Positions 8,618-63,600 of a DNA stretch of 64,000 nucleotides are shown piece by piece (the first letter of the stretch is position 1; each line of letters begins with the position of its first letter). A model generated the notes under the pieces. It saw only the letters and a list, made by a program, of their open reading frames with translations. It did no database searches and had not been told where the DNA came from. The stretch spans positions 174 to 64,173 of the forward strand of contig CAWGEQ010000050.1 in the NCBI GenBank assembly GCA_963821645.1. Reading direction: 5' to 3'. Source of the stretch: an uncultured delta proteobacterium (GTDB taxonomy: Bacteria; Desulfobacterota; RBG-13-43-22). A program made the translations under genes and the position numbers.

Positions 8618-8692
8618 GCGATCGCCTTATGTTTAAACAATTATAGTCGCAGGTGTCAAGAAAAAACCAACCTTTTTCTCAAATCATCTCCT

Positions 8693-10160: not shown

Positions 10161-10280
10161 AGGGCCGTGCCGATTTTAGATTTCGGATTTCGGATTTCAA
10201 AATTGAAAAGAATTGCCCCTGTCTCCCGATCCCTAACCCAGGCTTCCTTCCCTTAAACCTTGAACCTTGGACCTTGACAT

Positions 10281-13304: not shown

Positions 13305-13434
13305 TTCATTATTGGGTTGGTTTGGTTTTTTCCTTTAGACAGGACTTACAGGATTAACAAGAATTTCTCCCCTTTCCAGGAGAAAGGGAAGAATAAAAAT
13401 CTAAAAAATCCTGATTATCCTATCTGGTGAAAAG

Positions 13435-14491
13435 TTATGGATACAAGGGAAGCTGGGTCAGACCAAGGGTCTGGTCCCAGCCAAAGAGGATATTCATGTT
13501 TTGAACGGCCTGCCCGGAGGCCCCTTTAACCAGATTATCAATCACCGACAGGATAATCAATTGTCCGGTTCGGGCATCCAAGCTCCAGCCGATACGGCAA
13601 TAGTTGGATCCCCTGACCTGTAAGGTGGAAGGCCACTCCCCTTCTTCGCACAAACGGACAAAAGGGGCTTCCCGGTAAAAAGCCTGATAAAGCCCGATCA
13701 AGTCCCGGATGGTTATCTTTTTTGTCGGTCATAGTGTAAATGGTCGACAGGATGCCCCTGGACATGGGGACCAGATGAGGGGTGAAGGTCAGCTTAACGG
13801 ATTGTTGGGCTATCAAGCTCAATTCCTGTTCCATTTCCGGGATGTGGCGATGCCCACCCCCGACTTTATAGGCATTAAATCCTTCGCCGGCCTCACAAAA
13901 CAGACTCCCCAGATTCAAGGCTCGCCCGGCCCCGCTGACGCCCGATTTGGAATCGGCGATGATTCCCTCTTTTTTTATCAGTTTTTCTTTTAGAAGCGGG
14001 GCTATTCCCAAGATGATACTCGTGGGATAACAACCAGGATTTCCGATCAATCGGGCCTGTTCGATCTCTTTGCCGTGAATCTCAGGCAAGCCGTAAACGG
14101 CCTGTTCCAGCAACCCAGGGGCAACATGGGTCACCTGATACCAAGCCTCATATTCTTTAACCGCTCTAATTCGAAAATCGGCGCTTAAATCTATGATTTT
14201 ACACTTTGGTCTCTTCATCATTTCAGGAATCAGTTCCATGGCCTTCTGGTGCGGGACGGCAGTAAAAATCACATCCGAATCCTTGGCTATCTCAGCCAGG
14301 TCTGTGGCCCCAAAGGCCAGCTTTGTTTTGCCCAGAGAGGGAAAAACATGATGGACCGGTTTCCCTTCATATTGTCTGGAAGTAACCCGAATGACCTCTA
14401 CCCCAGGGTGCCGCAATAAAAGGCGCAGAAGCTCAAGACCCGTATACCCGGACCCGCCGACTACCGTAACTTTCTTTTTTTCTTTTTTCAT
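13435..14491 (-). pseudogene. argC: N-acetyl-gamma-glutamyl-phosphate reductase ArgC, frame broken by one extra base
   Basis: The N-terminal ORF (GGSGYTGLELLRLL, GNPGCYPT) and the C-terminal ORF (IDNLVKGASGQAVQNMN) lie in different frames. The span is 3n+1. Dropping one A from the A6 run (plus T6 13718..13723) gives ...TMTDKKITIRDLIGLYQAF... Confidence 0.9.
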
Positions 14492-14525
14492 GATCCCTCA
14501 CCCCTTGATGATTGCTTAAGGAGAC

Positions 14526-14562
14526 AAAAAAAGGGAAGGCCTTCAGAGCCTTCCCTTTTTTT
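14526..14562 (-). terminator. Intrinsic (bidirectional-looking) terminator after rpsI
   Basis: AAAAAAA-GGGAAGGC-cttcaga-GCCTTCCC-TTTTTTT: a perfect 8-bp GC-rich stem flanked by A and T runs. Confidence 0.8.
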
Positions 14563-48606: not shown

Positions 48607-49678
48607 TTATTTTTGCAAAAAATATTCTTTTATCTCTTTATCGGTCTTTGGCAGGAATTGCTGAAGAAATTTTTGTTTTAAGGAAAGAATGCGCTTTAGG
48701 CTGTTTTTAAATAATTCTTCGGAAATGGCCCCCTTTTTTATTTTATTCAACAAATAGAAATAGCCCCTTTCTATTTTTTCCGGGTCATGGCAGATCAGTA
48801 AGCTATCGGCTCCGGCCATAAAAGCCAAAAACAGGGCCTCTTCAAGCTCATAGTGCCGGGTGACCGCCCCCATTTCCAGGTCATCGGTCATGACCAGTCC
48901 CTCATACCTCAATGCCTGGCGCAAAAGTCCGGTAATGATGGCCGGGGATAGGCTGGCCGGATACTTTAGATCATAAGCCGGATATTTAACATGGGAGACC
49001 ATGATCGCCCCCGGCTGGATTTTAACCGCCTCTTTAAAAGGGACCAGTTCGACCTTTTCCAATTCGGCTTTATCTTTCAGTTGAATGGGCAGGTCCTGAT
49101 GGGAATCCAGATCGGTATCGCCGATCCCGGGAAAATGCTTGGCGCAGGCGATGATCCCGGCCTGCTGCAATTCGGTTATACATAAGGCCCCAAGCTTGGC
49201 CACCTGCAAAGGGATCGGAACCGTAGGAACGGTCGGCCATCAATCCCTTTGGACCCTGCGTGTTGACATCCAAAACCGGGGCCAAATCCATATTGATCCC
49301 CACCAACTTCAGCTCTTGGGCCTGGGTTTGAGCGAAATAACGGATCCACTCCTCCGGGTCTTCGGAAGAAGCCATGGTCGATGCCGAGGGGAACTGGGTA
49401 AAGGGCGGACCCAAACGGGCCACCGGACCTCCTTCCTGATCGATGGAGATAAAAAGGGGGATGGAAGAAATTTCCATGGCTTTTTCTTGAAGGGAGCGGG
49501 ACAGCTCGGCCAATTGAAAGGGGTCTTGAACATTTCTCTTGAAATAGATCACTCCGCCGATGTGCAGTTTTTTTAAAAAATAAGAAAGATCGGTATTGAA
49601 CTGGGTCCCTTCAAAGCCGACCATAAAAAGCTGCCCGACCAATTCTTCCAAAGACATTTTGCGAATTAGACGTTCCAT
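48607..49678 (-). pseudogene. nagZ: Beta-N-acetylhexosaminidase NagZ (GH3), frame broken by one extra base
   Basis: The N-terminal ORF (ISIDQEGG, LAPVLDV) and the C-terminal ORF (KHFPGIGDTDLDSH) join if one base is dropped near 49208..49213 (...SYGSDPLQVAKLG...). The span is 3n+1. Confidence 0.88.
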
Positions 49679-49785: not shown

Positions 49786-50217
49786 TTAGAATTTTTCGGG
49801 GGAAACGGTAAACCCCTCTTTGTGGGCCGCCGCCCGTAAATTATGATCAAGGCAAATGATCACTTGGTCCTTGGGGGATTCTTCCGCCCATATTAAGGCG
49901 GCTGAAAGTTGAAAGGCATCCGCCGTTCTCAGAGGATGAACCATTATAAGTCTCTCCGCCCGTTGTCGAAGGCGTTCACCGGGTTGGACCTCTGACCATT
50001 CGGCAGATAAGATGTTAAGAATAGCTGTTGCTTTGATCGCCTCTTCCGGAGAAAGCACCCCTTCCCGCCGTCTCCTGGCTAAAGCGGACTGGCATTCAAC
50101 TCGTGTCGCCCACCAGACCATCATATCTTCATCGGCTTTAATCAGGCGTGTTATGGTTTCAGACCAGGGTTCTTTGAGGCAGAGAGGAATGATGGCTGAA
50201 GAATCCCAGAATTTCAC
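49786..50217 (-). CDS. vapC: PIN-domain toxin VapC
   Basis: The GTG start overlaps the antitoxin stop (GTGA). The N-terminal FWDSSAIIPL (PIN Asp) and later acidic residues are present. The longer ORF to 50292 overlaps the antitoxin. Confidence 0.8.
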   Translation of the reverse strand: MKFWDSSAIIPLCLKEPWSETITRLIKADEDMMVWWATRVECQSALARRRREGVLSPEEAIKATAILNILSAEWSEVQPGERLRQRAERLIMVHPLRTADAFQLSAALIWAEESPKDQVIICLDHNLRAAAHKEGFTVSPEKF

Positions 50218-50504
50218 CGGCCTTCCTCCCGCTCCTCCAGGAGGGCCGAACGGATAAGTCCTTTGGGGTCCTCCGGCTTGGGTATGGTCCAAAAATTCTT
50301 TGGGAGTTTTCCCGAGCCCAGTTTAATTAAGCCTTGCTTTTCTATTTTGGCCAGTGATTCCCTTGGGTTTTTTTGGCGGGAAAGGGGGACTAACCGAGCC
50401 ACTGGTTTTCCGTGGTCAGTGATCAAGATCTCGGACCCCGCCTTTACCTGGTTTAAATAATCACTTAAATGGGCCTTTAATTTGGAGACAGCCGCTGTTT
50501 TCAC
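50214..50504 (-). CDS. Phd/YefM-type antitoxin
   Basis: 96 aa starting MKTAAVSKLKAHLSDYLNQVKAGSEILITDHGKPVARLVPL, the typical Phd/YefM N-terminal fold. Confidence 0.8.
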   Translation of the reverse strand: MKTAAVSKLKAHLSDYLNQVKAGSEILITDHGKPVARLVPLSRQKNPRESLAKIEKQGLIKLGSGKLPKNFWTIPKPEDPKGLIRSALLEEREEGR

Positions 50505-50562: not shown

Positions 50563-50840
50563 TACCATTTTTTATCCCGATACAATCTCAACCATTTAGG
50601 AAAAGGATACCTCCCCCACATCAATACCCCAAAATCCCCGGTTCATACCAATCCGCCCTTTTCACCAATTGATCTGCTGTTTTCCATATCGCAGTTTACT
50701 GGGTCCATACGCTTCTCCTCTGGATAACCGGCAGCATCGGCATTGAACAATTAACCCTATAAGAACATAAATTAGATATTGAACAACTCTGTTCATGTAA
50801 TAATATCAGATAGTTTTATTAGGAAAATCCGGATTTGACA

Positions 50841-50869
50841 TTGACAATCCCGGAACTTCCTGATATTAA
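50841..50869 (+). promoter_or_regulatory. Candidate sigma-70 promoter for the island genes
   Basis: TTGACA (50841..50846), a 17-nt spacer, then TATTAA (50864..50869), about 40 nt upstream of ATG 50907. Confidence 0.4.
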
Positions 50870-50906
50870 AAGGAAACTATTCAATATATTGTTGGGAGAA
50901 AGATCG

Positions 50907-51386
50907 ATGAAAATAATTAATATTTACGGCATTATTTGTTTCGTGATTCTTTCACTATTCGCCACTCAAGCATGGCCGGAAAATATTCTCAATTCTGATT
51001 CCGATTACAGCATAAAAATCGCGGTTACAATCAATCGAGATAATTCTATAATGGGAAAATTGGAGTATTCTACCCATACGCCTCAGTATCCTCTTCAGTT
51101 GGTGACTTTTAATCCGATTGGTGGCGTGATTCACGCTGAACCATATCTCTTTGAACTCCTTGAAAAGACGATTATTTCAAAAAACGTACACAGAATTAAA
51201 TGTCGCAGCATAAATGATAAATATGGGGCTGGTTCGCTGGTTATGGGGACCATTGATTTCCGCGATGAGCTTCAGCCCAAAGTGCATTTAGTGAATGAGA
51301 ATGGGTATACTTATATTGGTAACATAACGAAAAAGGGGAAAGAGACGCAGATGAAATACATACCAAATGTTTGGTTGGGACATTAA
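50907..51386 (+). CDS. Hypothetical secreted protein (signal peptide), AT-rich gene
   Basis: ATG 50907 is preceded by GGGAGAAAG. The N-terminus MKIINIYGIICFVILSLFATQAWP looks like a signal peptide. I recognise no family. Confidence 0.5.
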   Translation: MKIINIYGIICFVILSLFATQAWPENILNSDSDYSIKIAVTINRDNSIMGKLEYSTHTPQYPLQLVTFNPIGGVIHAEPYLFELLEKTIISKNVHRIKCRSINDKYGAGSLVMGTIDFRDELQPKVHLVNENGYTYIGNITKKGKETQMKYIPNVWLGH

Positions 51387-51481
51387 TTCAGATTCGTTGT
51401 TCCCGACTGAACATCCCAACCAGTCAATCCAGCTGACGTCTTACAGCTGCGGCTGATCTTGTTGGGCATTTGGAACAAGTA

Positions 51482-52534
51482 ATGAGAATTACGAAATCTC
51501 AGTTGGTAGAGAAACCAGAGAATTGGGGCCGCCATGTCGTTATACTGGGAGCCGGGGCCAGTGTCGCAGCGTTTCCCCAGGGTGACGCCAGTGGACGAAA
51601 GCTACCGACGATGGATGGCTTAATCGAAATGCTTGGCCTTGAGCCAGTATTGAAAACAGGAGGGGTCAAGAATACCCGGCGTAACTTTGAAAACATCTAT
51701 AGCGAGTTATATGAAATTGATCCTGGGTTGCCTATTCTGAGAGAAATCGAGGCCATCATATACGCGTATTTTGACAAACTGCGGCTCCCGGAAACATCAA
51801 CTCTCTATGACTATTTGTTGATGTCACTTCGGCCTAAAGATGTGGTCGCAACATTTAACTGAGACCCATTCCTCTTCGACGCTTGGAACCGAATGAAGGA
51901 TAGTGTCCCAGTTCCAAAGATTGTTCACCTTCATGGTAATGTTCGTGTGGCGTATTGCCCGGATCACCCTACCTACGGTGAGCACGGTATGTATTGTCCA
52001 ACATGTGATAGAGAGCTTGTTCCTTCTCGACTGCTCTACCCCGTGGCAATGAAGAACTACGTTGACGACCCCTTTATCAAAACAGAATGGGAAGTTCTGA
52101 AGAAGGCACTGCGTCAGGCAAGGACGTTGACGATCTTTGGCTATGGCGCTCCGACCACAGACAAAGAGGCAGTTGATATCCTGAATGACGCATGGGACAA
52201 GTCCAAGCGCTTAATCGAGAGAACCGAGATCGTTGACATAAAAGAGAAGGAGGTTCTGTGGAAGCAGTGGGACGCTTTCATTGTAAGAACCTATCTTGAT
52301 TGCCCTGGAAATTTCTATAAATCACGGTTGGCGACCTATCCCAGGAGGACTTGCGAAGCCTTGCGAGATCAGACTTTTTATGGTCTATGGGTCGAGGAAA
52401 ACCCATTTCCAGTGAATGCCGGATTTAATGAATTACTGTCCTGGGTGAAGCCGTTAGTTGAGGCAGAGAACAATGTAGGAAAGCCCAACAACCAAGGAGA
52501 TTCGGACGAAGGAGCCGTCGTCACACAAAAATGA
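51482..52534 (+). CDS. SIR2-like (SIR2_2-type) protein interrupted by one in-frame TGA at 51860..51862
   Basis: ORFs 51470..51862 and 51893..52534 share one frame. The motifs are VILGAGAS, TFN*DPF, HLHG, YCPDH...YCPTC and IFGYGAP, in the order expected for a SIR2 Rossmann fold with a Zn knuckle. Confidence 0.6.
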
Positions 52535-52655
52535 GCTTTCCGATACTATCAAAGTCAAAAACGGCCCAACCACCGGCTCGACCCGAACAAAATGCGGTCG
52601 GGTCAGCCGGGGCGTTATGTGAGAATAGTTAGATACACCATAGAACCGAGGAGGC

Positions 52656-53294
52656 ATGATGTTCAGGAATCTAATTCTTGGTCTGGATCCTGGCGGAAAA
52701 AACCGCTTTGGCTGGTGTATATCAGAGGATACGGACTGCCTTCCGTTGTCGATTCTGCACCGTGGAGTGGCCAGTCATGCTCAAGGAGCCATAGATGCAG
52801 CATTACGTCTTGGTGGGACCGGCAGGATCGCGGGAGCGGGAATTGATTCGCCACTATTCTGGACTCCAGACGGTGACCGAAAGGTAGACAAGCTCCTTCG
52901 GCAAAGCATCCGTCGTAAAGGAGGCCCGACGAGCACTGTAATGAGCGTAAATTCACTTCAGGGCGCTTGTCTTGTCCAGGGAGTTATAGCCGGTCAATTG
53001 ATCCGAAAACGGTTTTCTGATGCACGCATAACCGAGGCCCATCCCAAGGCCTTGCTGTGGCTTCTCGGTCTTGCAAACACCGAAACACCAGTTAATGACG
53101 TATCTCCCTCGGCGCTCTCCGGGTTTGTAGCTTTTGATTCAAGGATTTCCGAGCACGAACGGGACGCTGCGCTTGGAGCGCTTACCGCTTGGGCCATGCT
53201 GCATGTTTATGAAGGGTGGAGAGACATCTCCAAAGATGAGAGCGGCGCTATGCACCCGTGGGACACACCAGTCTCCTATTGGATGCCGGTATAA
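52656..53294 (+). CDS. DUF429-like predicted RNase-H-fold nuclease
   Basis: 212 aa with the RBS GAGGAGG. Contains LGLDPGG (N-terminal Asp), ITEAHPKALLWLLGL and EHERDAALGALTAW, a D-E-D pattern like RuvC/DUF429. Assigned from memory of the family. Confidence 0.5.
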   Translation: MMFRNLILGLDPGGKNRFGWCISEDTDCLPLSILHRGVASHAQGAIDAALRLGGTGRIAGAGIDSPLFWTPDGDRKVDKLLRQSIRRKGGPTSTVMSVNSLQGACLVQGVIAGQLIRKRFSDARITEAHPKALLWLLGLANTETPVNDVSPSALSGFVAFDSRISEHERDAALGALTAWAMLHVYEGWRDISKDESGAMHPWDTPVSYWMPV

Positions 53295-53319
53295 GAGGAA
53301 GGATATTTTGGAACCAACA

Positions 53320-53520
53320 TAACCGCTGGGTCCACCCAATCGCCCATACGGCGGGCTCTGGGTGACCCTGGCGTTGGCGCCGCTTGCGGCGTCGCCCCTA
53401 TCGGGTCCATGTCCCGGCCGGCTCCGCCTACGGCTGCGCCAACCAGGCCATTGGACCTCGATGTCCCTTGCTCGCCTGGGTCTTCGGCCCCAGCAAGCTT
53501 TGGGCCACGGGTCAACGCCG
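53320..53520. other. GC-rich non-coding element with several stable hairpins (possible structured RNA)
   Basis: There is no convincing ORF in any frame. Hairpins lie at 53328..53368 (10-bp stem enclosing CGCC/GGCG), 53376..53393 (7 bp, CTTG loop) and 53476..53493 (TTCG loop). Confidence 0.35.
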
Positions 53521-53589
53521 AATTGTACGACGGAAAAATGTAAAAGCGTAAAAGTTTAAAGGGGACTTCGTTGTTAAATTGCATTACAC

Positions 53590-54571
53590 TTAATTGGTTT
53601 CCCAATCCCAGAGGAGTCGCAGGACAAAAACCATTAATGCCATTACCAGAGATGAGCCATAAACAATCATAACCGTTTTTTTATAATCCGCCAGGGTAAT
53701 CTCCGAGCGATCGTCTCCCAAATAGGGTTTATCGCACTTCTCTCCGTCATAAAAAGCCGGTCCCCCTAATTGGATTTGCAAGGCCCCGGCCAAGGCCGCT
53801 TCAGGGATGGCGGCGTTGGGACTCTCGGATTTGCCGCCGTCCCGCTTGTCGGATGCGCCAGGCCTCTTCGAAGGAAAGCCCAAGGGGCCAGGCCAGGAGG
53901 CAAATCAAGAGACCGGTGATTCGGGCCGGGATATAATTAAGAAGATCATCCAGACGGGCCGAGGCCCAGCCGAAGTGGAGATAGCGATTGTCTTTATAAC
54001 CTACCATGGAATCGAGGGTGCTGACCGTCTTAAAGGCCATGGCCAGAGGAACCCCTCCCAGAAGAAGATAGAACAGAGGGGCGATAATCCCGTCGGAAAG
54101 GTTTTCCGCCAGGGTCTCCAGGACCGCCTTCAAGATCTCCGGATAGGTCAGGTGTTCGGTGTCACGCCCGACGATGCGGCTTAAATTTTTTCTGGCTTCG
54201 GAAACCCGGCCATCTTTCAGGGCCTTCACTACCCGGGCCGCTTCCTGATGAAGGGAGCGGGTGGCCAAAGTGGTGTAGGCAAGGACAATGACGAGCAAAG
54301 ACCCGACCCAGGGATGGATGGCCTTTGCGCCTTCGATCAACCAAAAGGTACCGGCAAAAATTCCTGCCGGCAAACCAATGGCCAACAAACACCCGGCCGC
54401 CTTTTCCCAGGCAGGGCGGGAAGAGGGCCAACGCAGCATTTTCTCAAAAATTCGAATTAAAAATCCGATACCCCGAACCGGATGGGGAAAATATTTTGGA
54501 TCGCCCAGGGCCAGATCCAGAAGATAGGCCAGGGCAAATTGATAGGCGTTCAAAGGTGATACAACTTCCAA
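53590..54571 (-). pseudogene. cbiB: Adenosylcobinamide-phosphate synthase CbiB/CobD, frame broken by one extra base
   Basis: The N-terminal ORF is a typical CbiB membrane protein. The C-terminal ORF carries SPNAAIPEAALAGAL.IQLGG. They join if one base is dropped near the GGG run (plus 53841..53843). The span is 3n+1. Confidence 0.88.
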
Positions 54572-54595
54572 AGAATCAATGAGTTCTAAAATAAA

Positions 54596-54660
54596 CGAAC
54601 ATCGAATTTCGAATGTACGGAATTTGAATCATGAAGTGTTTTGTTTTTACCTTCCTTCGA
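54596..54660. repeat. Intergenic repeat family B, copy 2 (inverted)
   Basis: The reverse complement contains TCGAAGGAAGGTAAAAACAAAACACTTCATGATTC...TTCGAAATTCGATGTTCG, matching 19750..19800. Confidence 0.7.
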
Positions 54661-54712
54661 CGTTCATGAATTCGATCATTCGATTTTGACATTTCCATGC
54701 TTCTCGACACCT

Positions 54713-55474
54713 TCATGAAAAAGCCTGCTTCAATTCTACCAGCAGGTCTTCCATCCGCTGAAATCTCTTCCCCGAAAAGACTTCGGGCCGTTCTATGACT
54801 ACCACCTGGCAATGTTCCTGTCTGGCGGCTTCCAACTTGTTCAAGACCCCGCCGGGAAGACCGCTGTCTTTGGTGACCAGGACCCCTATGGAATATTTTT
54901 TGATCGCTTCTTTATTATCCTCAACAGAAAATGGTCCTCGTCCGAAGAGAATATGATCCTCCTCTATCCCGGCCTGACGGCAGGCCTCAACGGAACCTGG
55001 ATGGGAAAGGACCCGGACCCATAAAGGAGTCTTCGTTTGTGCGCTCTTTCGAACGTAGGGCTCCAAATTACGGGAACCGGTGGTCAGCAATACCGGTCTG
55101 TCGATGGAAAAGGCCAGGGAGGCCGCTTGTTCATGATCCTTGGCGAATAAGAAACCCTGATCCGTGGGGACCACTGGCGGACGGTCCCATAAAAAATAGG
55201 GGGTGGCCAATTCCTCGGCTGTTTTTTGGGCGAGAGTTTTTATTTGTTGGGCATAGGGGTGGGTGGCATCGACAACGGCCCGGATTCCCTGGGAACGAAT
55301 CAGACGGGTCAATTCCCCCTCATCCAGACCCCCTTGTCTCCTGGATATCAAGGGATGATTCTCAAAGTCCAGGGGAACATCCGTGGCTGTAGAGACCAGT
55401 ACCGGATATCCCTGCTCGGCCAGTTGGGAGGCCAGGGAAACAGATTCACTGGTTCCCCCCAAGAGCAGGATCAT
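54713..55474 (-). CDS. cbiJ: Cobalt-precorrin-6A reductase CbiJ/CobK
   Basis: 253 aa starting MILLLGGTSES, matching the CbiJ family. Lies within the cbi cluster. Confidence 0.85.
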   Translation of the reverse strand: MILLLGGTSESVSLASQLAEQGYPVLVSTATDVPLDFENHPLISRRQGGLDEGELTRLIRSQGIRAVVDATHPYAQQIKTLAQKTAEELATPYFLWDRPPVVPTDQGFLFAKDHEQAASLAFSIDRPVLLTTGSRNLEPYVRKSAQTKTPLWVRVLSHPGSVEACRQAGIEEDHILFGRGPFSVEDNKEAIKKYSIGVLVTKDSGLPGGVLNKLEAARQEHCQVVVIERPEVFSGKRFQRMEDLLVELKQAFS

Positions 55475-56187
55475 AGACTATACCCTCTGGGGGTGATAAA
55501 CCAGCCCTTGAGATTTATGGAGGATTTATTCCCCACGATGAGAATACTCCTCATGGAGATGTCAAAGTCCAGGCAATGAGCCAGGTCGGTTAAAATAAAA
55601 TGTTCCTCATCGGTTCCTATGGCAGTAGCAATCCCTACCGGCGTGGTCCCCGGACGGAAGCCTTTAAATATGTCGACGGCCTCTTCCAATTGTCTTATCC
55701 GCTTTTTGCTCCTGGGATTGTAGAGGACCGTCGCCAGGTCGGCCTGGGCCACGGCCTCCAGGCGCTTCAGGATGGTTTCCCAGGGAACCAGGAGGTCACT
55801 CAGACTGATGCAGGCATAGTCAAGCATGATCGGGGCGCCCAACTTGGCCGCAGCGGCATTCGAGGCCGAGACACCGGGAACAATCTCAATGGGGAGGTCC
55901 ATTCCTTCCGCGGCGGACAGCTCCAGGGCCAGGCCGGCCATGCCGTAAATACCGGGGTCCCCGGAAGAGATCAGGGAAACCTGGTTTCCTTCCTGGGCCC
56001 GTCTAAGAGCGATCAGGCAGCGTTCTTTTTCCTGACGCATCCCCGAGGAAATGATCTCCTTGCCCGGGGTCAGGTCTTTAATCAGCTCCAAATAACGGGC
56101 ATAGCCCACGACAATGGTGCTTTGTCCAATGGCCTTCTCGGCCCGAAGAGTTCGGTCTAACGGTCCTCCGGGACCGATGCCGACCAC
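55471..56187 (-). CDS. cbiH: Cobalt-precorrin-3B C17-methyltransferase CbiH
   Basis: Tetrapyrrole methylase fold (VVGIGPGG, SSGDPGIYGMA). GTG start. Confidence 0.85.
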   Translation of the reverse strand: MVGIGPGGPLDRTLRAEKAIGQSTIVVGYARYLELIKDLTPGKEIISSGMRQEKERCLIALRRAQEGNQVSLISSGDPGIYGMAGLALELSAAEGMDLPIEIVPGVSASNAAAAKLGAPIMLDYACISLSDLLVPWETILKRLEAVAQADLATVLYNPRSKKRIRQLEEAVDIFKGFRPGTTPVGIATAIGTDEEHFILTDLAHCLDFDISMRSILIVGNKSSINLKGWFITPRGYSL

Positions 56188-56957
56188 AAAAAGTTTTCCC
56201 TGGCGATGGCGATGGTCACCCCGTTGAAGATCTTCTTGGGTAGAATTAATTGGGTCCTCCTTCCTGCCAATAAAGCCGAGGCTTCGGCCACGGACGGCAG
56301 ATTGACTTTCTTTTTTACAAACTCCGAGTGTTCAAAGGCTTTGATGGTGGTGCGTATCTCCTGGGAAGCGATAAACCGCAAAGGAACCTCCAACCGTTTG
56401 GCCGCTTCAATAAGGCCTTTTTCATCGGACTTGATATCGGCCGAGGCCAGATAACGGACCTGGTCGATTCCCACAGCGCTTTCCTCCAGAGCGGTCTTAA
56501 CGGCTGTCATGATGACTTCCGCCCCGGCACCCCGTCGGCAGCCGATCCCGACTATCACTGATTTAAGGGCCTCGGTAGAGGTGGTGATAATCGGTTCGGC
56601 CCCCAGGATGTTGCCGACTAAAAGGGCCAGATCGTTGGCCCCGCCCTCGTGGCCGCTGAGCAGGCTTATAGCGAATCTCCCCCCCACATCCACTACTACC
56701 GCTGCCGGGTCTTGGGTTTTATGGTGAAGATAGGGGGCCAGGCTCCTGACCGCGACCCCGGCCGGCATCACATAGATTAATCCTTCATATTGGAAAAAAA
56801 TCTCTTTGGTCAGGGTCAAAATGCTGTCAAATCGTTTAGCCGGCAATGGCCATGAGACCTGACGGTGTAAAAAGACCTCTCCCTCGGGTAAGGCCTTCTT
56901 TAGATAAAAGACCAGGGCAGCCCCTTCCTTTGAGAGGCTGATCAAGGCCACTTTCAT
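56157..56957 (-). CDS. cbiG: Cobalt-precorrin-5A hydrolase CbiG
   Basis: 266 aa with CbiG N- and C-terminal domains (GIGCRRG). Lies between cbiF and cbiH. Confidence 0.8.
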   Translation of the reverse strand: MKVALISLSKEGAALVFYLKKALPEGEVFLHRQVSWPLPAKRFDSILTLTKEIFFQYEGLIYVMPAGVAVRSLAPYLHHKTQDPAAVVVDVGGRFAISLLSGHEGGANDLALLVGNILGAEPIITTSTEALKSVIVGIGCRRGAGAEVIMTAVKTALEESAVGIDQVRYLASADIKSDEKGLIEAAKRLEVPLRFIASQEIRTTIKAFEHSEFVKKKVNLPSVAEASALLAGRRTQLILPKKIFNGVTIAIARENFLWSASVPEDR

Positions 56958-57712
56958 GACTGGTTCCCTTGGCGAAAGCCATGGCTGAATCCCTGGTCAT
57001 AAAGTTTGGAGGCCGGAATATCCCGGGCCAAGGCCTGTCCCACCAGGATCAGGGCAGTTTTTCGGATTCCCGATGTGCGCACCTTTTCCGGGAGGTCCAC
57101 CAAGGTCCCCCGGATGATTTGTTGATCCGGCCAGGAACTGCGGTAGACGACGGCGGCCGGACAATCAGGCCCGTAATAGGGGGCCAGGGTTTCAACAATG
57201 GATCCCAGGCGGTCTATGGAAAGAAAGATGCACAGCGTGGCCTTCAAACGGGCCAAGGCATCCAGTTCCTGCTCCTTGGGCATGGGTGTGCGTCCGGAGG
57301 TTCTGGTCAGGATGATGGTCTGAGATACTTCCGGTGCGGTGAGTTCTGTCTTTAAGGCCGCGGCAGCGGCCTGAAAGGAACTGACTCCGGGAACGACCTC
57401 ATAATCGATATCCAATTTATCCAGTTCGTTCATCTGTTCCCGGATGGCCCCATAGATAGAGGGGTCTCCGGAATGGAGACGGATGACGTCCAGGCCCTGG
57501 TCCCTGGCCTGAAGGCATAGGGCAATAATTTCTTTCAGAGATAATCCGGCTGAATCATATTTTTGAGCCTTATCCGGCAACAACCGAAGGACCTCGGGGC
57601 TGACTAAGGAACCGGCATAGAGGCAATACTGACAATTTTTTAAAAGTTTCTCGGCCTTAACGGTCAACAGCTCAGGGTCTCCAGGGCCGGCGCCCACAAA
57701 ATGGACCTTCAT
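56954..57712 (-). CDS. cbiF: Cobalt-precorrin-4 C11-methyltransferase CbiF
   Basis: Starts MKVHFVGAGPGDPELLTVKA and carries LHSGDPSIYGA, a tetrapyrrole methylase. Confidence 0.88.
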   Translation of the reverse strand: MKVHFVGAGPGDPELLTVKAEKLLKNCQYCLYAGSLVSPEVLRLLPDKAQKYDSAGLSLKEIIALCLQARDQGLDVIRLHSGDPSIYGAIREQMNELDKLDIDYEVVPGVSSFQAAAAALKTELTAPEVSQTIILTRTSGRTPMPKEQELDALARLKATLCIFLSIDRLGSIVETLAPYYGPDCPAAVVYRSSWPDQQIIRGTLVDLPEKVRTSGIRKTALILVGQALARDIPASKLYDQGFSHGFRQGNQS

Positions 57713-58440
57713 GATTTTTCCTTTCCTTCGGCATGGACGAGGATGATGGAAAGATACCCGGCCTCGGGGTCCTCGGCCTTCAACCGGCGTAAATCGGTTT
57801 CTATCCGCTGTCCTTCCTGCCCGGCCCGGGCCACAAAGACGGCCTGATCCATGAGGCCCAGCTTTTCCAGAAGGTCCAGAATCTTGGCCAGACGTTTTCC
57901 GATCTTCATCAAGACTACCGTCCCGCCCTTTTCCAGGGCCTGTTCGACCATGGCCAGGTCATCGGCCGTGGGGATGATCGTTACCGGGGCCTTGGCCTCG
58001 CCCACCGGAAATTCGGTCAGGGCCGCGGCCGCGCTGAAGGCATTTACCCCTGGTACGGTCAGGGCCGTAAGATTGGGGATCTTTCGGCGCAGATGACGTA
58101 AAAGATAGATATAAGTCGAATAGAGCAAGGGATCGCCCAAGGTCAGGAAGCAGCAGTCATGCCCTTCGACGAGAAAGTCAGCGATTTTTTGAGCCGCCCC
58201 ATCCCAATGATTGGAAAGTGCTTTGGGATCGGTGATCATGGGAAACATCAATTCCATGACCTGGGAATCCCGGCCTAAAAAAGGGCCGGCGATCTTCAAG
58301 GCAGCACTGTCCCGCTCTTCCCGGGATTTGGGGACAAAGACCATTCGGCACTCTGAAAGGAGCTTGGCCCCCTTGATGGTCATCAATTCCGGGTCCCCGG
58401 GTCCTACGCCGATACCATAGAGTTTTCCAAGTGTTTTCAT
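57709..58440 (-). CDS. cbiL: Cobalt-precorrin-2 C20-methyltransferase CbiL
   Basis: Contains KLYGIGVGPGDPELMTIKG and LGDPLLYSTY. Confidence 0.85.
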   Translation of the reverse strand: MKTLGKLYGIGVGPGDPELMTIKGAKLLSECRMVFVPKSREERDSAALKIAGPFLGRDSQVMELMFPMITDPKALSNHWDGAAQKIADFLVEGHDCCFLTLGDPLLYSTYIYLLRHLRRKIPNLTALTVPGVNAFSAAAALTEFPVGEAKAPVTIIPTADDLAMVEQALEKGGTVVLMKIGKRLAKILDLLEKLGLMDQAVFVARAGQEGQRIETDLRRLKAEDPEAGYLSIILVHAEGKEKS

Positions 58441-58459
58441 AAAAGCTTTCTTTTGATGA

Positions 58460-59080
58460 TTAGAAAAAGTGTCCTCGAAGAGACTTCAATCTTTCCCAGG
58501 TCTTCGGGTTCTGACCGAGCCGAATCTTCTCATCGTCCAGGGTTAAATTTTCGCAGACATAAACGGCCCAACCGGAACCCAACCCTTGCAGGGCTTTGGC
58601 CAGCCACTCCACCGAGCCCTTACGGCCTCCCAATACAGCTATCTTTTCGACACCTGAATCAAGGACATCCTGAAAATCCGTTTTGGGATCCTGGCCATGG
58701 GCGTCTATGATTCGGGCCTCCCCCCAATCCAAACCCAAACGGGCAAAGGCCACCTGGATGGAGCTGATTCCCGGGATGACCCGGCAGGCCTCCCGGCCAA
58801 ACCGCCTGATAACCGGGCGGGCCAGACTGGACAGGCCGGGATCTCCGGAAACCAGCACAACCATGGGGCGGCCCTGATGATTGGCCATTTCTTCCAAAAC
58901 GGTTTCCACCTGGCTCCCCATTTCGATGACCGTCTCGGCTTGATGATCCGGGAAGAGATCCAGCAGTCTCCTGGCCCCGACCAATATTTCCGCGTCCTCA
59001 ACGGCCTTGGCCGCCAGGGATGTTATGTACTCCGGTGATCCGGGACCACAGCCGACAATGGTTATGTCAGGCTTCTTCAT
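58460..59080 (-). CDS. cbiE: Cobalt-precorrin-7 C5-methyltransferase CbiE
   Basis: ITIVGCGPGSPEYIT...SGDPGLSS. The likely start is ATG 59080, overlapping the cbiD stop (ATGA). The ORF is open to 59116. Confidence 0.8.
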   Translation of the reverse strand: MKKPDITIVGCGPGSPEYITSLAAKAVEDAEILVGARRLLDLFPDHQAETVIEMGSQVETVLEEMANHQGRPMVVLVSGDPGLSSLARPVIRRFGREACRVIPGISSIQVAFARLGLDWGEARIIDAHGQDPKTDFQDVLDSGVEKIAVLGGRKGSVEWLAKALQGLGSGWAVYVCENLTLDDEKIRLGQNPKTWERLKSLRGHFF

Positions 59081-60132
59081 CGCCACGGCTCCAGGTTTCC
59101 GGAAGCGCCCAGCCATTCCCCTTGAAGATTGACCAATACGGCGGCCGTCTCTATCCCTTTTCCAAGACGGGCACTTACCGCATCGTTAACCCGGCTGGCC
59201 AACAAATCGCCCAGGGCTTTTCTCTCCTCATTGGATATGGCCATTATAAGCCCTTCTACCGTCGAGCTTGCTGGGAGTGGCTGTTTCACGATTTCCGAAG
59301 CCGCCTTTTCAACAAAGGCCAGGGCGCTTTTGGACCGGGAAGAATGGGTGTCCCACTGATTTTCCGCTAATTTGACCAGTTTTCCCGGATGCCCCAGGAC
59401 CAGCAGATGTTCCCAGTTATATTCGGTCAGGCTGTCCAACATGAAGCCCCATTCGTTGCTCACCTCGATCACCTGATCGGAAAGAAGGGAAAAGTGTTTT
59501 CGGGCGGCCCGCTCCCCGATATGGCCGGGCACAAAGACCGGTGCCTTGATCCCGGCGGACCGGGCCACATTTAAGGCACATTTTAAAGACTCCTGCAAGG
59601 CCGGACAGCTAAAGGGACGGACCCGGCCCTGGGTCCCCAGGATGGACAAGCCACCCAGCACCCCCAAGCGGGGATTAAAGGTCTTGGCGGCCAGTGCTTC
59701 CCCTCCGGGGATGGATATGAAGATCCTCAGCCCTTGATCGGTAATTTCCCGAACAGCCCGACGGATCTGCTCCCGCGGAACCGGATTGATGGCTGCTTCC
59801 CCCACAGGCAGACTCAAGCCCGGCTTGGTGATCCTTCCAACACCCTCACCGGCTTCGAAGAGGATCTCCTTCCCTTCCATCATGGAGACCGAGGCCTTGA
59901 TCAAAACCCCGTGGGTGATATCCGGATCATCCCCGGCATCCTTACGCACCGCCGCTAACCCCACCCCTTCATGAAGGTCTGCCAGGACCACGGGGAAACG
60001 CACCCGTTCGCCGTCAGGCAGTCCTACCTCCACTTCTTCCTCCAGAATCCCATCCCTGAGAAGCCTAACGGCCGCCTTGGCCGCCGCCGCGGCACAGGTG
60101 CCGGTGGTATAACCGGAACGAAGGGTGCTCAT
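59077..60132 (-). CDS. cbiD: Cobalt-precorrin-5B C1-methyltransferase CbiD
   Basis: 351 aa starting LRSGYTTGTCAAAAAKAA, the typical CbiD N-terminus. Confidence 0.9.
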   Translation of the reverse strand: MSTLRSGYTTGTCAAAAAKAAVRLLRDGILEEEVEVGLPDGERVRFPVVLADLHEGVGLAAVRKDAGDDPDITHGVLIKASVSMMEGKEILFEAGEGVGRITKPGLSLPVGEAAINPVPREQIRRAVREITDQGLRIFISIPGGEALAAKTFNPRLGVLGGLSILGTQGRVRPFSCPALQESLKCALNVARSAGIKAPVFVPGHIGERAARKHFSLLSDQVIEVSNEWGFMLDSLTEYNWEHLLVLGHPGKLVKLAENQWDTHSSRSKSALAFVEKAASEIVKQPLPASSTVEGLIMAISNEERKALGDLLASRVNDAVSARLGKGIETAAVLVNLQGEWLGASGNLEPWR

Positions 60133-61061
60133 CCGTCTTCCGCCCCTTTTTTGCCGGTTTTCCCTTCATAGAGCCGGATCAGGTCCCTCCTGGCCTTTCC
60201 GACGGTCAAAGGGATTTTATCAAAAGGCAAACGGTCCTCATGTTTTAAGCGGTAGATCAATTCGGCGATCTGGGGCAGCCGGAGTTTCACCTGATGCATT
60301 TCTTCCGGGGCATTGAAGACCTCTTCCGGGGTCCCCCCTCTGACCATTTTACCCTTGCTCAAGATATAAAGCCGGTCTAAAAACACCGGGACCAGGTCCA
60401 CACTGTGGGTGGCCATGACCATGGTCACCCCGTTTTCTTTGTTCAGCCGGGTCAGAAGATGCATCATCTTGGTTTCGCCCATGGGGTCCAGTCCGGCGGT
60501 AGGTTCGTCCATCAAAAGGATCTCATGGCCCATGGCCAGGAGTCCGGCGATGCAAACCCTTTTTTTCTGGCCGAAGCTTAGGTGATGGATGGACTTTTTC
60601 TCATAGCCCTCCATCTCCACCTCTTTCACGGCCTGAATGGTTCTCTCGGTAATCTCCTTTTCGGGAAAGCCCATATTAATCGGCCCGAAAGCCACGTCTT
60701 CAAAGACCGTGGAGGCAAAAAGTTGATCATCCGGGTTCTGGAAAACAAGTCCCATCTTGCGGTATATTTCCTTGGGGGATAATTTTTTTAATTCCAGCCC
60801 GTCCAGAAAGGCCTTCCCGGAAAATTCCTTGAGCAAACCATCCATAATTTTGAGCAGGGTGGTCTTGCCCGAACCGTTGGAACCTAAGATCCCGACAAAC
60901 TCCCCCTTATGCACATCCAGGGAAATATCCGCCAGGGCGACGGTCCGGTCCGGATAAGTAAAGGAATCGATCCTCACCGATAGCCGGGGTTCGGGGCGGT
61001 CCGGATTGTTTTCTAATAGGCCCATACCATACCCATAATCAAAACGAAACTTATGGAACAC
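60129..61061 (-). CDS. cbiO: Cobalt/ECF-type ABC transporter ATPase CbiO
   Basis: Contains Walker A GSNGSGKTT, signature LSFGQKKR and Walker B LLMDEP. The start may be Met at 61025. Confidence 0.88.
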   Translation of the reverse strand: MFHKFRFDYGYGMGLLENNPDRPEPRLSVRIDSFTYPDRTVALADISLDVHKGEFVGILGSNGSGKTTLLKIMDGLLKEFSGKAFLDGLELKKLSPKEIYRKMGLVFQNPDDQLFASTVFEDVAFGPINMGFPEKEITERTIQAVKEVEMEGYEKKSIHHLSFGQKKRVCIAGLLAMGHEILLMDEPTAGLDPMGETKMMHLLTRLNKENGVTMVMATHSVDLVPVFLDRLYILSKGKMVRGGTPEEVFNAPEEMHQVKLRLPQIAELIYRLKHEDRLPFDKIPLTVGKARRDLIRLYEGKTGKKGAEDG

Positions 61062-61765
61062 AGGATCTCCAAAGGTTGAAAGGCCCGGTGCTTGAGAAAT
61101 GGCAAGTGTCCGTCGTATCCCCTTTGGACCATGGCCTGGGCCGTATTCTGGCTCTGGTCAAATCCCTTGAGGGTCAGGGACCCGGCCAGGACCCCAAAGG
61201 AGGTTAACCCCCGCCGCACATTGGAATAACCCAGCCTGTTTTTCTGGGCCTGATAAATAACCAGGGCATCCTCGACCAGGACAAAAATATAGCGGTAGGC
61301 AAAAAGGACGATCTCGATAAAACCCTTTGGAATCCTCATCCAGGAAAGACCGGCTAAAAACTCGGTAAAAGGGGTGGAGAATCCCAGAAGGGCCACCAGG
61401 GATACGGCCGCACCCATACGGTTGCCGATCATCAGACCCTGCAGAAGACCATCTTGATAGCCGATTAGCTTTAATCCAAAACAATGAATCACAAAGAGGG
61501 GCTTTTGGCCGGTGAAAAAAGTTTTTAAGATCAGAAGCACGGCAATGATAAAGAGGGGTTCGGAAAAACGCATCAAGATGGTCCGCAGGGAGATCCGCAT
61601 CTGAATCCAGAAGACCAGACACAAACCACAGACCAAGAGAGGAAATAAGAACCCCTGATAACTGATGACCATAACCAGAAGGGCCAGGGTGACTAAAAGC
61701 TTGATCCGGGCATCCACACGGGAAAGCCAGTGACCTTTGGCTAAAAATTGGTGAATATGTTCCAT
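61013..61765 (-). CDS. cbiQ: Cobalt transporter transmembrane component CbiQ
   Basis: 250 aa polytopic protein with the ECF T-component pattern (DARIKLL..., ...AYRYIFVL). Lies between cbiN and cbiO. Confidence 0.85.
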   Translation of the reverse strand: MEHIHQFLAKGHWLSRVDARIKLLVTLALLVMVISYQGFLFPLLVCGLCLVFWIQMRISLRTILMRFSEPLFIIAVLLILKTFFTGQKPLFVIHCFGLKLIGYQDGLLQGLMIGNRMGAAVSLVALLGFSTPFTEFLAGLSWMRIPKGFIEIVLFAYRYIFVLVEDALVIYQAQKNRLGYSNVRRGLTSFGVLAGSLTLKGFDQSQNTAQAMVQRGYDGHLPFLKHRAFQPLEILCSISFVLIMGMVWAY

Positions 61766-62202
61766 CAGGATTTTGATTTCTCCTTAGAGTGTAAAGAGGA
61801 CCTTTCAACCAGAAGGACCCTCCAGTAATATCCGGCGATGAATCCCCCAACAGCCCCGGCTAAAAGAAATACAAAAAGGAGGAGGTCTCCCTGATCGGTA
61901 TTGATAAGGGGCTTCCAGGCCTTCCTCCCTTGCTCCTGGGCCACTTTATTTACCACCGATTCATCCACCCCCGCCCATTTATCAGCGCCGAAAGCTAAGG
62001 ACTGAAGAATAAAAACAACGAGTAGAAACGTCGGCAAAAGAGGCGATAAATTTTTATAAGGTTTTCTTAATTCCGAACGCCGAACGCTTAACGCCGAAGG
62101 CTTAACTTCCCGTTCCGAACTCCGAACCCCCAACTCCGAACGATTATTTCTCCCTTCGTGATTCGGCGATCCACAATCCGCAATCCGGATTCGGCACATC
62201 AT
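61765..62202 (-). CDS. cbiN: Cobalt transport protein CbiN; start uncertain (ATG 62202 coupled to cbiM, or TTG 62037)
   Basis: The C-terminal 90 aa (FGADKWAGVDES...AWKPL...LLFVFLLAGAVGGFIAGYYW) looks like CbiN. The first 50 or so codons of the ORF are encoded by a CCGAAC/ATCCG-type repeat. Confidence 0.7.
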   Translation of the reverse strand: MMCRIRIADCGSPNHEGRNNRSELGVRSSEREVKPSALSVRRSELRKPYKNLSPLLPTFLLVVFILQSLAFGADKWAGVDESVVNKVAQEQGRKAWKPLINTDQGDLLLFVFLLAGAVGGFIAGYYWRVLLVERSSLHSKEKSKS

Positions 62203-62903
62203 ATTCCTACCTCCGCCGGTTTTAAGACCTTCATCTTAACCAGAAGGTCCGGCCTTTTTTTATAAAGCAGGCCGATCATGCCCGCCGTCAGGGCTCCCTC
62301 CAGGATGCCCAAAGGAAGCTGGGTCGGGATAAAGGCGATGACTATTTTCCAAAAAAGCGGCAGAAACGGAGAGGTTCCTTTGATTCCGGAAGCCAGCTCC
62401 ACCGAAGTGGTCAGATAGGTGGCCCAGTCGGCTAAGAGCCCGGCCAAAAAACCCGCCGCAAACAGGGGTATCTTTAACCCACGCGAAGCCCGAAAGATTA
62501 AAAAACCAACCCAGGAACCCACCACCCCCATGGAAAAGATATCGGCCCCCCAGGTGGTTAATCCACCATGGGCCAGAAAGAGGGCCTGAATCAGCAAGGC
62601 GGCGGAGGTGATCAGGATGCTCAGCGACGGCCCGACCAGGATTCCGGAGATGGCTGTCCCACAGGGGTGGGAACAGGTGCCGGCCGTCGGCACCGGAATG
62701 GGCATACAAGAGATGATAAAGACCACGGCCGCCAAGAGTCCCATTAAAGGCTTGAAGGACAGGTCCAGGGCGGCGTTCTTCTTCAAACGGGCCAATCCGA
62801 AAACCCAAAAGGGCAAAACGGCTATAAACCAGAAAACAGCCCAGTTGAAAGGTAATATGCCCTCTGAGATGTGCATGGCCTGGGCGTTGTCGGTGAAGAG
62901 CAA
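62199..62903 (-). CDS. cbiM: Cobalt transporter substrate-capture component CbiM
   Basis: 234 aa with the N-terminal MHISEGILP motif typical of CbiM, and polytopic topology. Confidence 0.88.
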   Translation of the reverse strand: MLFTDNAQAMHISEGILPFNWAVFWFIAVLPFWVFGLARLKKNAALDLSFKPLMGLLAAVVFIISCMPIPVPTAGTCSHPCGTAISGILVGPSLSILITSAALLIQALFLAHGGLTTWGADIFSMGVVGSWVGFLIFRASRGLKIPLFAAGFLAGLLADWATYLTTSVELASGIKGTSPFLPLFWKIVIAFIPTQLPLGILEGALTAGMIGLLYKKRPDLLVKMKVLKPAEVGI

Positions 62904-63042
62904 ACAAGCGCTAAGAAAAAAAGGGTGAATTTGGTTAATTGATCAAACTTTAAAAATCCCTCCCGACCTCCCTTTGTCAAAGGGAGGGGCCAACCTTCCC
63001 TCTTTCGGAAAGGGGGACTGAGGGGGATTTTTTGTGCACCCT

Positions 63043-63600
63043 TCAAACTTTCAATTTATAATCTTCATTTACCGACTTTCCGAGGTACTTGGCCGCCTCC
63101 TCCGGGAGCATGGGCACAAATTCGTACTGCCCGTGAGGGATTGGAAAATTTTCTTCGGGCGGTAAACTCCTATTTCTCACATCTTCTTCTTCCTGAGATT
63201 TTTGAATGCACTGATGGACCAGGTCCACCAGCAATTCGTCATATCCCAGGCCTTTCCCCAGGACCAATTCCACCTGAGGATATTTCCGGGCCTCTTGCTG
63301 CATCATCTTGGGAATATCCAGCAGAAGGTGCAAACCCATGTGGAGGAAATAAGGGATGACCAGGACCTTGGTCGCCCCGATGAGGACGCAGTGTTCAAAA
63401 ACCTCTGGGAAATGAGGGCCCAGCCTGGACATAAAGCAGATTTCGACCATGGCATATCCATATTTTTCCTTGAGACGCTCGGCGGTCTTCTGCATATTTC
63501 TGGCCGCCTCAGGCACACGGCTCCCATGGCCCAGGAGGATAATGGCTTCTTTTTTGGTATCGGTAGCGCTTGGATTTTTCACACTCATTTTTTCAGGCAT
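63043..63600 (-). CDS. cbiX: Sirohydrochlorin cobaltochelatase, short CbiX type
   Basis: 185 aa with ILLGHGSRVPEA and VIPYFLHMGLH motifs of CbiX(S), plus an acidic C-terminal tail. Confidence 0.8.
   Translation of the reverse strand: MPEKMSVKNPSATDTKKEAIILLGHGSRVPEAARNMQKTAERLKEKYGYAMVEICFMSRLGPHFPEVFEHCVLIGATKVLVIPYFLHMGLHLLLDIPKMMQQEARKYPQVELVLGKGLGYDELLVDLVHQCIQKSQEEEDVRNRSLPPEENFPIPHGQYEFVPMLPEEAAKYLGKSVNEDYKLKV

Follow-up and report, generated by a model that had tools for sequence, protein, structure and literature searches.

Two neighbouring genes for a SIR2-like protein and a DUF429 protein in a delta proteobacterial contig are probably independent cassettes of a small integrase-less attC cluster

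The attC site of an integron cassette folds as an imperfect single-stranded hairpin, and the integrase cuts between G and TT of its GTTRRRY core (written G/TT below). This cleavage lets each cassette be excised, captured and reshuffled independently. In sedentary chromosomal integrons and in clusters of attC sites without an integrase (CALINs), the cassettes are co-directional and mostly single-gene units with an attC site 3' of each, and RYYYAAC...GTTRRRY boxes enclose an imperfect palindrome with bulged bases. Integrons have been shown to hold collections of small genes that act against phages (Darracq et al., 10.1101/2024.07.02.601686; Kieffer et al., 10.1101/2024.07.02.601719; review PMC13434031). 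Among the protein families relevant here, the SIR2 proteins of immune systems ("sirims") were reported to lack systematically the zinc site and the Cys tetrad (Bonhomme et al., 10.1101/2024.09.18.613514). DUF429 was placed in the RuvC clade of the RNase-H-like superfamily, and was judged "unlikely to be mobile" (Majorek et al. 2014, PMC3985635). A 64-kb stretch of DNA from an uncultured delta proteobacterium (assembly GCA_963821645.1, contig CAWGEQ010000050.1), designated as the window, contains a 3.9-kb insert between a nagZ-like gene and cobD. Two co-directional genes lie 121 bp apart in it: gene 1, whose family is related to SIR2, and gene 2, a member of the DUF429 family. An initial annotation had proposed them as a possible two-gene defence module. 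The locus is instead very probably a small CALIN of three single-gene cassettes beside a PIN/Phd-YefM toxin-antitoxin pair, in which genes 1 and 2 are independent of each other (Table 1).

The attC sites were recognized with a covariance model, R1, built from 15 attC sites of other contigs and none of the window, with the R''/L''-L'/R' structure drawn by hand. The candidate sites were harvested from loci with a hairpin heuristic, which was used only for this purpose and is weakly specific (188 hits in real against 128 in shuffled sequences, 1.5-fold). It revealed textbook attC sites directly 3' of gene 2 homologs at 15 loci, and around some gene 1 homologs. A first attempt with MAFFT and RNAalifold on hand-picked attC-like sites yielded a consensus of only 4 bp, and was replaced by the cleaner set and the hand-drawn structure. 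In R1, 80.6% of the cells are paired, compared with 27-40% for slid controls, and 18 pairs show compensatory changes. Scanning of the whole window on both strands with the filters off gave three hits at E < 0.05 (the next best at 0.38), all on the plus strand and each just 3' of a co-directional open reading frame (ORF). The strongest of them lies between genes 1 and 2; it scores 35.9 bits on the plus strand versus 11.5 bits on the minus strand, and the z-score of its hairpin is -2.6.

The cassette boundaries are also visible as ends of DNA similarity to other contigs. L-numbers are used here for genomic loci or contigs carrying homologs of gene 1 or gene 2. In L082, L084, and L002, similarity to the gene 1 unit sets in at 51460-51462, where GTTGGGC is located 14 nt 5' of the ATG. 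For the gene 2 unit, similarity sets in at 52613 in L083; its other end, just past the GTT at 53373, is at 53377-53379 in L081, L083, L085, and L086. The breakpoints thus fall at GTT cores in seven contigs, and AAC...GTT imperfect palindromes are present in all three intergenic gaps.

Neither tblastn nor a hidden Markov model of five recombinases, one of them a true IntI, detected a tyrosine recombinase in the 64-kb window; the search did not cover attI and Pc. Because the attC sites are not accompanied by an integrase, the locus is classified as a CALIN and differs in this respect from a complete integron. It shares with CALINs and sedentary chromosomal integrons the anatomy described above, including boundaries at G/TT, a toxin-antitoxin pair beside the array, a cargo of unknown or defence-like function decaying to pseudogenes, and the occurrence of the same cassettes in other arrays in a different order. 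Unlike them, it has only three detected attC sites, which come from a home-made model rather than from IntegronFinder, and an unclear left boundary.

The independence of the two genes was revealed by comparison of species-level loci, 80 with a gene 1 homolog (±6 kb) and 81 with a gene 2 homolog. The initial annotation had itself named adjacency in other genomes as a test of its two-gene module. By tblastn, a gene 2 homolog is present at 0 of the 80 gene 1 loci, and a gene 1 homolog at 1 of the 81 gene 2 loci (L084). Each of the closest DNA relatives has just one of the two genes: L082 matches the window over 51460-52470 at 89% nucleotide identity and has gene 1 only, while L081 matches 52590-53377 at 94% and has gene 2 only. 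Clustering of the neighbouring ORFs at the 80 gene 1 loci gave no family present in more than five loci. The 146 immediate neighbours of gene 1 homologs contain 170 Pfam families, each in at most four proteins, and no family occurs in more than three of the 150 neighbours of gene 2 homologs, where the recurrent families do not include SIR2. PADLOC matched neither of the two proteins. A two-gene system, with a DUF429 nuclease partnering or regulating a SIR2 NADase, would explain the co-directional pair at a short distance in a low-GC insert, and SIR2 and RuvC-like folds are both known from defence proteins. It would also explain why L084 has both homologs side by side, but their order there is reversed (gene 2 and then gene 1). 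Against the counts above, the lack of a conserved neighbour, the strand-specific attC site between the two genes, and the frequent presence of an attC site of its own beside each family elsewhere, such a system is extremely improbable, and the SIR2 + DUF429 module was rejected. As each gene has its own attC site and the cassettes are independent, genes 1 and 2 very probably became neighbours by cassette shuffling and not by joint function. The two-gene system is an artefact of cassette juxtaposition that should not be carried forward, and the case shows that adjacency inside integron arrays should not be taken for an operon.

It is also very unlikely that the locus is an ordinary genomic island, in which the hairpins are terminators or other repeats and the adjacency arose by accident without an integron mechanism. 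The lack of an integrase in the window and the 1.5-fold excess given by the AAC...GTT heuristic are consistent with this explanation, as is the island of L082, which carries the closest gene 1 homolog and has a generic tyrosine recombinase instead of IntI. The hairpins of the window, however, match a model of structure plus sequence derived from other contigs with a strong strand asymmetry; their boxes are of the RYYYAAC/GTTRRRY type, and a T-run is lacking. At gene 1 loci, each of the 31 R1 hits lies on the same strand as the gene, similar sites form a nine-site array beside a bona fide IntI in L023, and the GTT cores coincide with the similarity breakpoints. Several observations weigh against the interpretation of the locus as a CALIN with two independent genes of the assigned families. 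R1 is not the curated model of IntegronFinder and gives only rough E-values; the hairpin heuristic supplied its training sites; and one of them, from L085, is a diverged homolog of attC site 3, so that the hit of site 3 depends in part on the training set. Site 1 scores weakly (E 0.017), and both the left boundary of cassette A and the standing of the toxin-antitoxin pair are tentative. The attC site 3' of gene 1 is wholly unlike that of its closest homolog in L082, and therefore the gene 1 cassette was not moved as one unchanged unit. At 68 of 81 gene 1 loci there is no attC site, so the family is not exclusively cassette-borne. The alignment of the gene 1 family with a classical sirtuin, described below, is weak, and the activities of both proteins are read from fold and motifs only. 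Finally, the frameshifts in the flanking nagZ-like and cobD genes are possible assembly errors, and the in-frame TGA of gene 1 is possibly another.

This TGA was analyzed together with the rest of the reading frame. Gene 1 extends over 350 codons in a single frame, from the ATG at 51482 to the TGA at 52532-52534, and the motifs VILGAGAS, HLHG, YCPDH...YCPTC, and IFGYGAP appear in this order. The sole in-frame TGA is at 51860-51862 (TFN-stop-DPF), and every aligned homolog has Trp127 at the corresponding position. Since TGA is an ordinary stop in the window, the commonest one in fact (it ends 20 of 45 long ORFs), and is the terminator of gene 1 itself, it is a nonsense codon here; recoding to Trp or Sec was ruled out for the same reason, and Rfam gave no recoding element in 49.5-54 kb. 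An independently assembled 2-kb contig (run ERR11594405) has two ORFs, of 126 and 213 aa, 5' of an identical gene 2, and the TGA split of gene 1 is thus reproduced in a second assembly. Judged from its sequence, gene 1 of the window is a pseudogene, probably through a TGG-to-TGA nonsense change. Its translation would end at codon 127, and the product is predicted to be inactive because the stop precedes Asp128, His151, and the zinc knuckle. The alternative is that the TGA arose by an error of sequencing or assembly, or is read through at a low level by tRNA-Trp, and that a full-length, possibly toxic SIR2-like protein is made. Of the stop codons, UGA is the leakiest, with Trp inserted on misreading, and one base separates the TGA from the expected TGG. 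The frame is otherwise open across all 350 codons and matches its homologs end to end, and the single frameshifts of the two flanking housekeeping genes, which may be assembly indel errors or genuine decay, bear on how far the TGA can be trusted. The defect of gene 1 is a substitution, however, while the other suspected errors are indels; the same split of 126 and 213 aa was assembled independently; TGA is the most used stop of the window; and no recoding element was found. Cassettes of integrase-less arrays are, moreover, commonly silent and decaying (10.1101/2024.07.02.601686). An intact gene 1 is on balance unlikely, and the pseudogene is preferred. Homologs of gene 1 are disrupted also in L011, L017, and L084, two of them by frameshifts and one by truncation at 287 aa; this reflects either frequent decay of gene 1 or errors of long-read assembly.

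Table 1. Features of the insert and its flanks, in coordinates of the window.
Feature	Position	Strand	Evidence and remarks
GH3 (NagZ-like) gene, left flank	48607-49678	-	Frameshift, giving two ORFs; PF00933 positions 2-143 in one and 146-316 in the other
PIN-domain toxin (VapC-like)	49786-50292	-	Pfam PF01850, 24.4 bits vs cut-off 23.6; left edge of the insert
Phd/YefM-type antitoxin, partner of the PIN toxin	50214-50504	-	Pfam PF02604, 47.2 bits, E 1.9e-12
GTTGGGA core-like site, 9 nt 5' of the cassette A ATG	50891-50897	+	Sequence; taken tentatively as the left limit of cassette A; closes an AT-rich element prone to hairpins
Cassette A	~50892-51461	+	Small protein
Cassette A ORF, ~160 aa	50907-51386	+	ATG 50907; ORF listing extends to TTG 50835
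attC site 1	51414-51467	+	R1 20.9 bits, E 0.017; R'' TCCCAAC, R' GTTGGGC; 3' end of cassette A, G/TT at 51461/51462
Cassette B	51462-52614	+	Gene 1
Gene 1, SIR2-fold zinc-knuckle family (predicted), probable pseudogene here	51482-52534	+	Homologs, model, in-frame TGA
attC site 2, between genes 1 and 2	52564-52620	+	R1 35.9 bits, E 5.5e-6; R'' GCCCAAC, R' GTTATGT; 3' end of cassette B, G/TT at 52614/52615
Cassette C	52615-53373	+	Gene 2
Gene 2, DUF429 family, RNase-H/RuvC-like fold (predicted)	52659-53294 (211 aa) or 52656-53294 (212 aa)	+	Pfam, homologs, model
attC site 3	53317-53379	+	R1 32.8 bits, E 2.9e-5; R'' ACATAAC, R' GTTGGCG; 3' end of cassette C
cobD/cbiB gene, right flank	53590-54571	-	Frameshift, giving two ORFs; PF03186 positions 2-224 in one and 221-281 in the other

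Both gene families are recurrent integron cargo. Among the gene 1 loci, R1 found attC sites directly flanking the homolog in 13 of 81 (31 hits overall). Among the gene 2 loci it gave 67 hits, 60 of them on the strand of the gene, and the other seven are the same near-palindromic sites at a much lower score; an attC site flanks the homolog at about 24 of the 81 loci, and several of these are arrays of five to seven sites. The clearest case is L023, from the metagenome-assembled genome of an uncultured gammaproteobacterium, where a complete integron was found at 2082-8833 with a divergent IntI (TIGR02249, 497 bits vs cut-off 265), nine attC sites, and a gene 1 homolog as a cassette. The attC site upstream of this homolog appears to be nearly identical to the classical aadA attC. 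Nothing tying SIR2 proteins to integron cassettes was found in the literature searched.

Most gene 1 homologs are located outside integrons, in variable and defence-rich places. PADLOC recognized mad8, PDC-S01, type IIG and type III restriction-modification systems, BrxH, Hhe, Hma, and SoFic among their neighbours. On the plasmid pOCN014 of Vibrio coralliilyticus (L163, WP_040122577.1), the homolog is between a SLATT/ATPase cluster and McrBC, with "mobile mystery proteins" nearby, and on the plasmid pLPL of Legionella pneumophila Lens (L164, WP_011212644.1) it is beside type I-F CRISPR-Cas/umuDC. Both proteins are annotated as "hypothetical protein", and both are intact gene 1 copies in cultured bacteria. 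The L082 island (1065-14539) includes a generic tyrosine recombinase and, downstream, a RelA/SpoT-like gene together with an AAA ATPase of TrlF/Ppl type; it has four R1 hits and no IntI, and its recombinase, being of the generic type, was rejected as an integron integrase. Neither gene 1 nor gene 2 protein has a homolog in the phage collections searched.

The gene 1 protein was searched with its stop replaced by Trp. Its family comprises 2,294 clusters (90% identity) at E <= 1e-3, the best at 88% identity, with relatives from many phyla in no fewer than 588 species-representative genomes. Nearly all the clusters are unnamed, while a few JGI records are named SIR2-family deacetylases. The repaired protein showed no match at E <= 1 in Pfam (including PF02146 and PF13289), NCBIfam, or PADLOC. 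When Pfam was applied to 40 family members at E <= 10, SIR2_2 was touched by only one of them (E 0.097), and a profile search of the PDB sequences with the family gave no SIR2. The invariant or near-invariant columns are G23/G25/A26/S27, T124-F125-N126-(W127)-D128, H151-G152-N153, C159/H162/C172/C175, and F219-G220, and with such conservation across the homologs the motifs of gene 1 are not there by chance.

The kinship with SIR2 was revealed only through structure prediction and a targeted hhalign comparison, while the sequence-profile routes gave nothing significant. An AlphaFold2 model was built for the homolog P0004, which is 88% identical to gene 1, with a 40-sequence alignment (pLDDT 87.2, pTM 0.86). 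With Foldseek, all of its 48 best PDB matches were SIR2 proteins (E 8e-8 to 1e-3, TM 0.3-0.5), among them the SIR2 of SIR2-HerA, SIRT2, Af-Sir2, DSR2, ThsA, SPARSA, KomC, and Avs5; the significant matches to viral structures were two only, both Sir2 proteins. DSSP assigned six main strands and a small ribbon to the model. The family profile was also aligned by hhalign with the Thermotoga Sir2 (Sir2Tm), in a sequence identical to PDB 1yc5 at 246 of 246 residues. The alignment is local and weak (E 0.003, probability 10%) and has the expected register: TFNWD with TQNID (N126-N99, D128-D101), HLHGN with ELHGN (H151-H116), and the Cys ligands C159-C124 and C172/C175-C148/C151 (CPxC). The predicted zinc-ligand set is C-H-C-C, in a C-x2-H-x9-C-x2-C knuckle at the sirtuin position. 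These results support the assignment of the gene 1 family to SIR2 at the level of predicted fold and motifs, outside the existing profiles. The SIR2 call of the initial annotation thus held for the fold and the register and failed for the Pfam SIR2 and SIR2_2 profiles, and its sirtuin-like zinc knuckle was borne out by the invariant C159/H162/C172/C175. In the JGI protein P0090 (473 aa), the ~260 N-terminal residues of a gene 1 homolog (80% identity) are joined to a DNA methylase domain (PF01555), either as a genuine fusion or as a chimera caused by a frameshift.

The gene 1 family shows similarity to both classical sirtuins and sirims. With the classical sirtuins (Sir2Tm, Af-Sir2, CobB, and SIRT2), it shares the Rossmann-type SIR2 fold, apparently with six main strands, the GAGxS NAD loop, the N-x-D and H-G motifs in the same register, and a predicted four-ligand zinc site right after the catalytic His. 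It differs from them in the lack of a Pfam SIR2 hit, in its 17-residue knuckle, in an extra C-terminal region of ~100 aa, and in its contexts, which are mobile (integron cassettes and plasmids) and beside defence systems rather than housekeeping ones. The best structural matches are sirims (the SIR2 of SIR2-HerA, ThsA, DSR2, SPARSA, KomC, and Avs5). The family shares with them TxNxD and hLHG-type motifs and mobile contexts of the defence-island type, and its size of ~340 aa is near that of PsSIR2 of SIR2-HerA (360 aa). Sirims were defined by the absence of the zinc tetrad, seven or more strands, and a defence-enriched neighbourhood (Bonhomme et al., 10.1101/2024.09.18.613514), whereas the gene 1 family has a predicted zinc tetrad and apparently six main strands; many defence genes do occur in its neighbourhoods. 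Unlike the sirims, gene 1 has no HerA, TIR, SLOG/Macro, Argonaute, STAND, or DSR2 sensor and matches no PADLOC model. Compared with the named systems (Thoeris, DSR1/2, SIR2-HerA, SPARSA, Kongming, and Avs5), it has no obligatory partner or fused sensor, and there is no extra known domain in its ~340 aa. The usual partners of SIR2 systems are thus absent, as the initial annotation had noted, with no PADLOC hits and no conserved neighbour at the 80 loci. Its label of an NADase effector, on the other hand, is not established: the label is weakened by a sirtuin-type zinc tetrad, which is reported to be systematically absent from sirims, and the gene of the window is broken.

Gene 2 is preceded by GAGGAGG at 52648-52654 and starts at 52656 or, by an independent gene call, at the second ATG, 52659. 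It contains the motifs LGLDPGG, ITEAHPKA, and EHERDAALGAL. Its own score on PF04250 (DUF429) is 21.3 bits, below the 23-bit cut-off (E 2.4e-4). Among its 660 homologs, however, many have PF04250 (including proteins at 45-78% identity) or are named "DUF429" or "predicted nuclease with RNase H fold", and a Hydrogenophaga plasmid homolog, 41% identical, is named "DUF429 domain-containing protein" by PGAP. The residues D11, D64, E127, H129, H167, and D170 are invariant in 44 sequences. The best PDB matches of the AlphaFold2 model (pLDDT 95.9) were Thermus RuvC (E 1.9e-3, probability 0.99), Ydc2 from yeast, and the RuvC domain of Cas12a, with TM 0.4-0.5. As in DUF429 (PF04250; COG2410/COG4328/COG4923; clade D of the RNase-H-like superfamily, with RuvC), the protein is a single domain of ~210 aa with acidic residues conserved on the first and fourth strands and a late H-x-R-D, and RuvC and Ydc2 are the best structural matches. 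The assignment to DUF429 at the family level, with a predicted RuvC-like RNase-H fold, is therefore supported, in agreement with the initial annotation, and the product would be a stand-alone metal-dependent nuclease, as its fold and motifs suggest. Besides the score under the Pfam cut-off, the protein differs from typical DUF429 in that ~30% of the sampled loci of its subfamily have a flanking attC site. This subfamily is a frequent integron cassette, contrary to the view that DUF429 is immobile (Majorek et al. 2014, PMC3985635).

Each cassette of the window would have been captured separately by IntI-mediated recombination at G/TT, and the array would now be static and probably poorly expressed, as no intI is present in the window. 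Proteins of the gene 1 family may be NAD+-dependent enzymes that need no partner and serve in defence or conflict as products of a single gene; they would deplete NAD+, or ADP-ribosylate or deacylate a target recognised via the zinc module and the C-terminal region. A role in defence is plausible for this family, just short of an even call. A tentative, somewhat less than even possibility is that it constitutes an unrecognised autonomous one-gene anti-phage or anti-plasmid system, a compact SIR2 that has a zinc knuckle, in contrast to all immune SIR2 proteins described, and is spread by cassettes, plasmids, and defence islands across many phyla, and that the DUF429 subfamily is a cassette-borne stand-alone RuvC-like defence nuclease. 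If this is true, the window would hold two new systems of one gene each, in decayed or silent copies, rather than a single system of two genes. Both families fit the recent picture of integrons as reservoirs of compact defence genes. The locus itself is an ordinary type of element, and the remaining interest is in the unannotated zinc-knuckle SIR2 family. It is a large family of predicted SIR2 fold that is invisible to Pfam, NCBIfam, and PADLOC and carried in RefSeq as "hypothetical protein", and its combination of a sirtuin-like zinc site and a defence-gene lifestyle cuts across the published divide between sirtuins and sirims, which makes it a concrete candidate.

The coordinates and motifs of genes 1 and 2, the 121-bp gap, the GAGGAGG, the low-GC island, and the vapBC-like neighbour reported by the initial annotation were all recovered. 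The GC content is 0.385-0.45 over 50.0-52.0 kb, compared with 0.50-0.56 in the flanks. R1 showed no attC site beside the PIN/Phd-YefM pair in the scan of the whole window. The protein of cassette A has a hydrophobic, signal-like N-terminal segment (MKIINIYGIICFVILSLFATQAWP) and no significant match in Pfam, NCBIfam, or PADLOC. R1 gave no hit at the core-like site 5' of this cassette, where a hairpin of -12 kcal/mol (50781-50897) was found by the heuristic scan, ending at GTTGGGA. The insert is not at a tRNA gene, as the sole tRNA of the window is a tRNA-Val at 8543-8617. To the right, the cobalamin-biosynthesis genes (cobD, cbiJ/cobK, and neighbours) constitute a long minus-strand run at 53801-63600. 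Searches for records of exactly the same sequence gave none for one cob gene (56954-57712) and none for gene 2 in its 212-aa form.

Two further elements were observed at the edges of the array. An AT-rich element of ~170 nt (50719-50897) is 69% identical to L081 4817-4983; it precedes a different gene in each and ends in a GTT core (GTTGGGA and GTTAGTT, respectively) near the ATG. R1 does not recognize this element, which may be an attC site of exceptional length or degenerate form, or a promoter region carried by the cassette. At the other edge, an inverted repeat with 24-nt arms (GTTGGCGCC...GGCGCCAAC) extends over 53373-53443, beginning at the R' core of attC site 3, and the stretch 53380-53590, 5' of the cobD coordinates, has no assigned feature. 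The inverted repeat and this stretch may be the remnant of an additional cassette or site.

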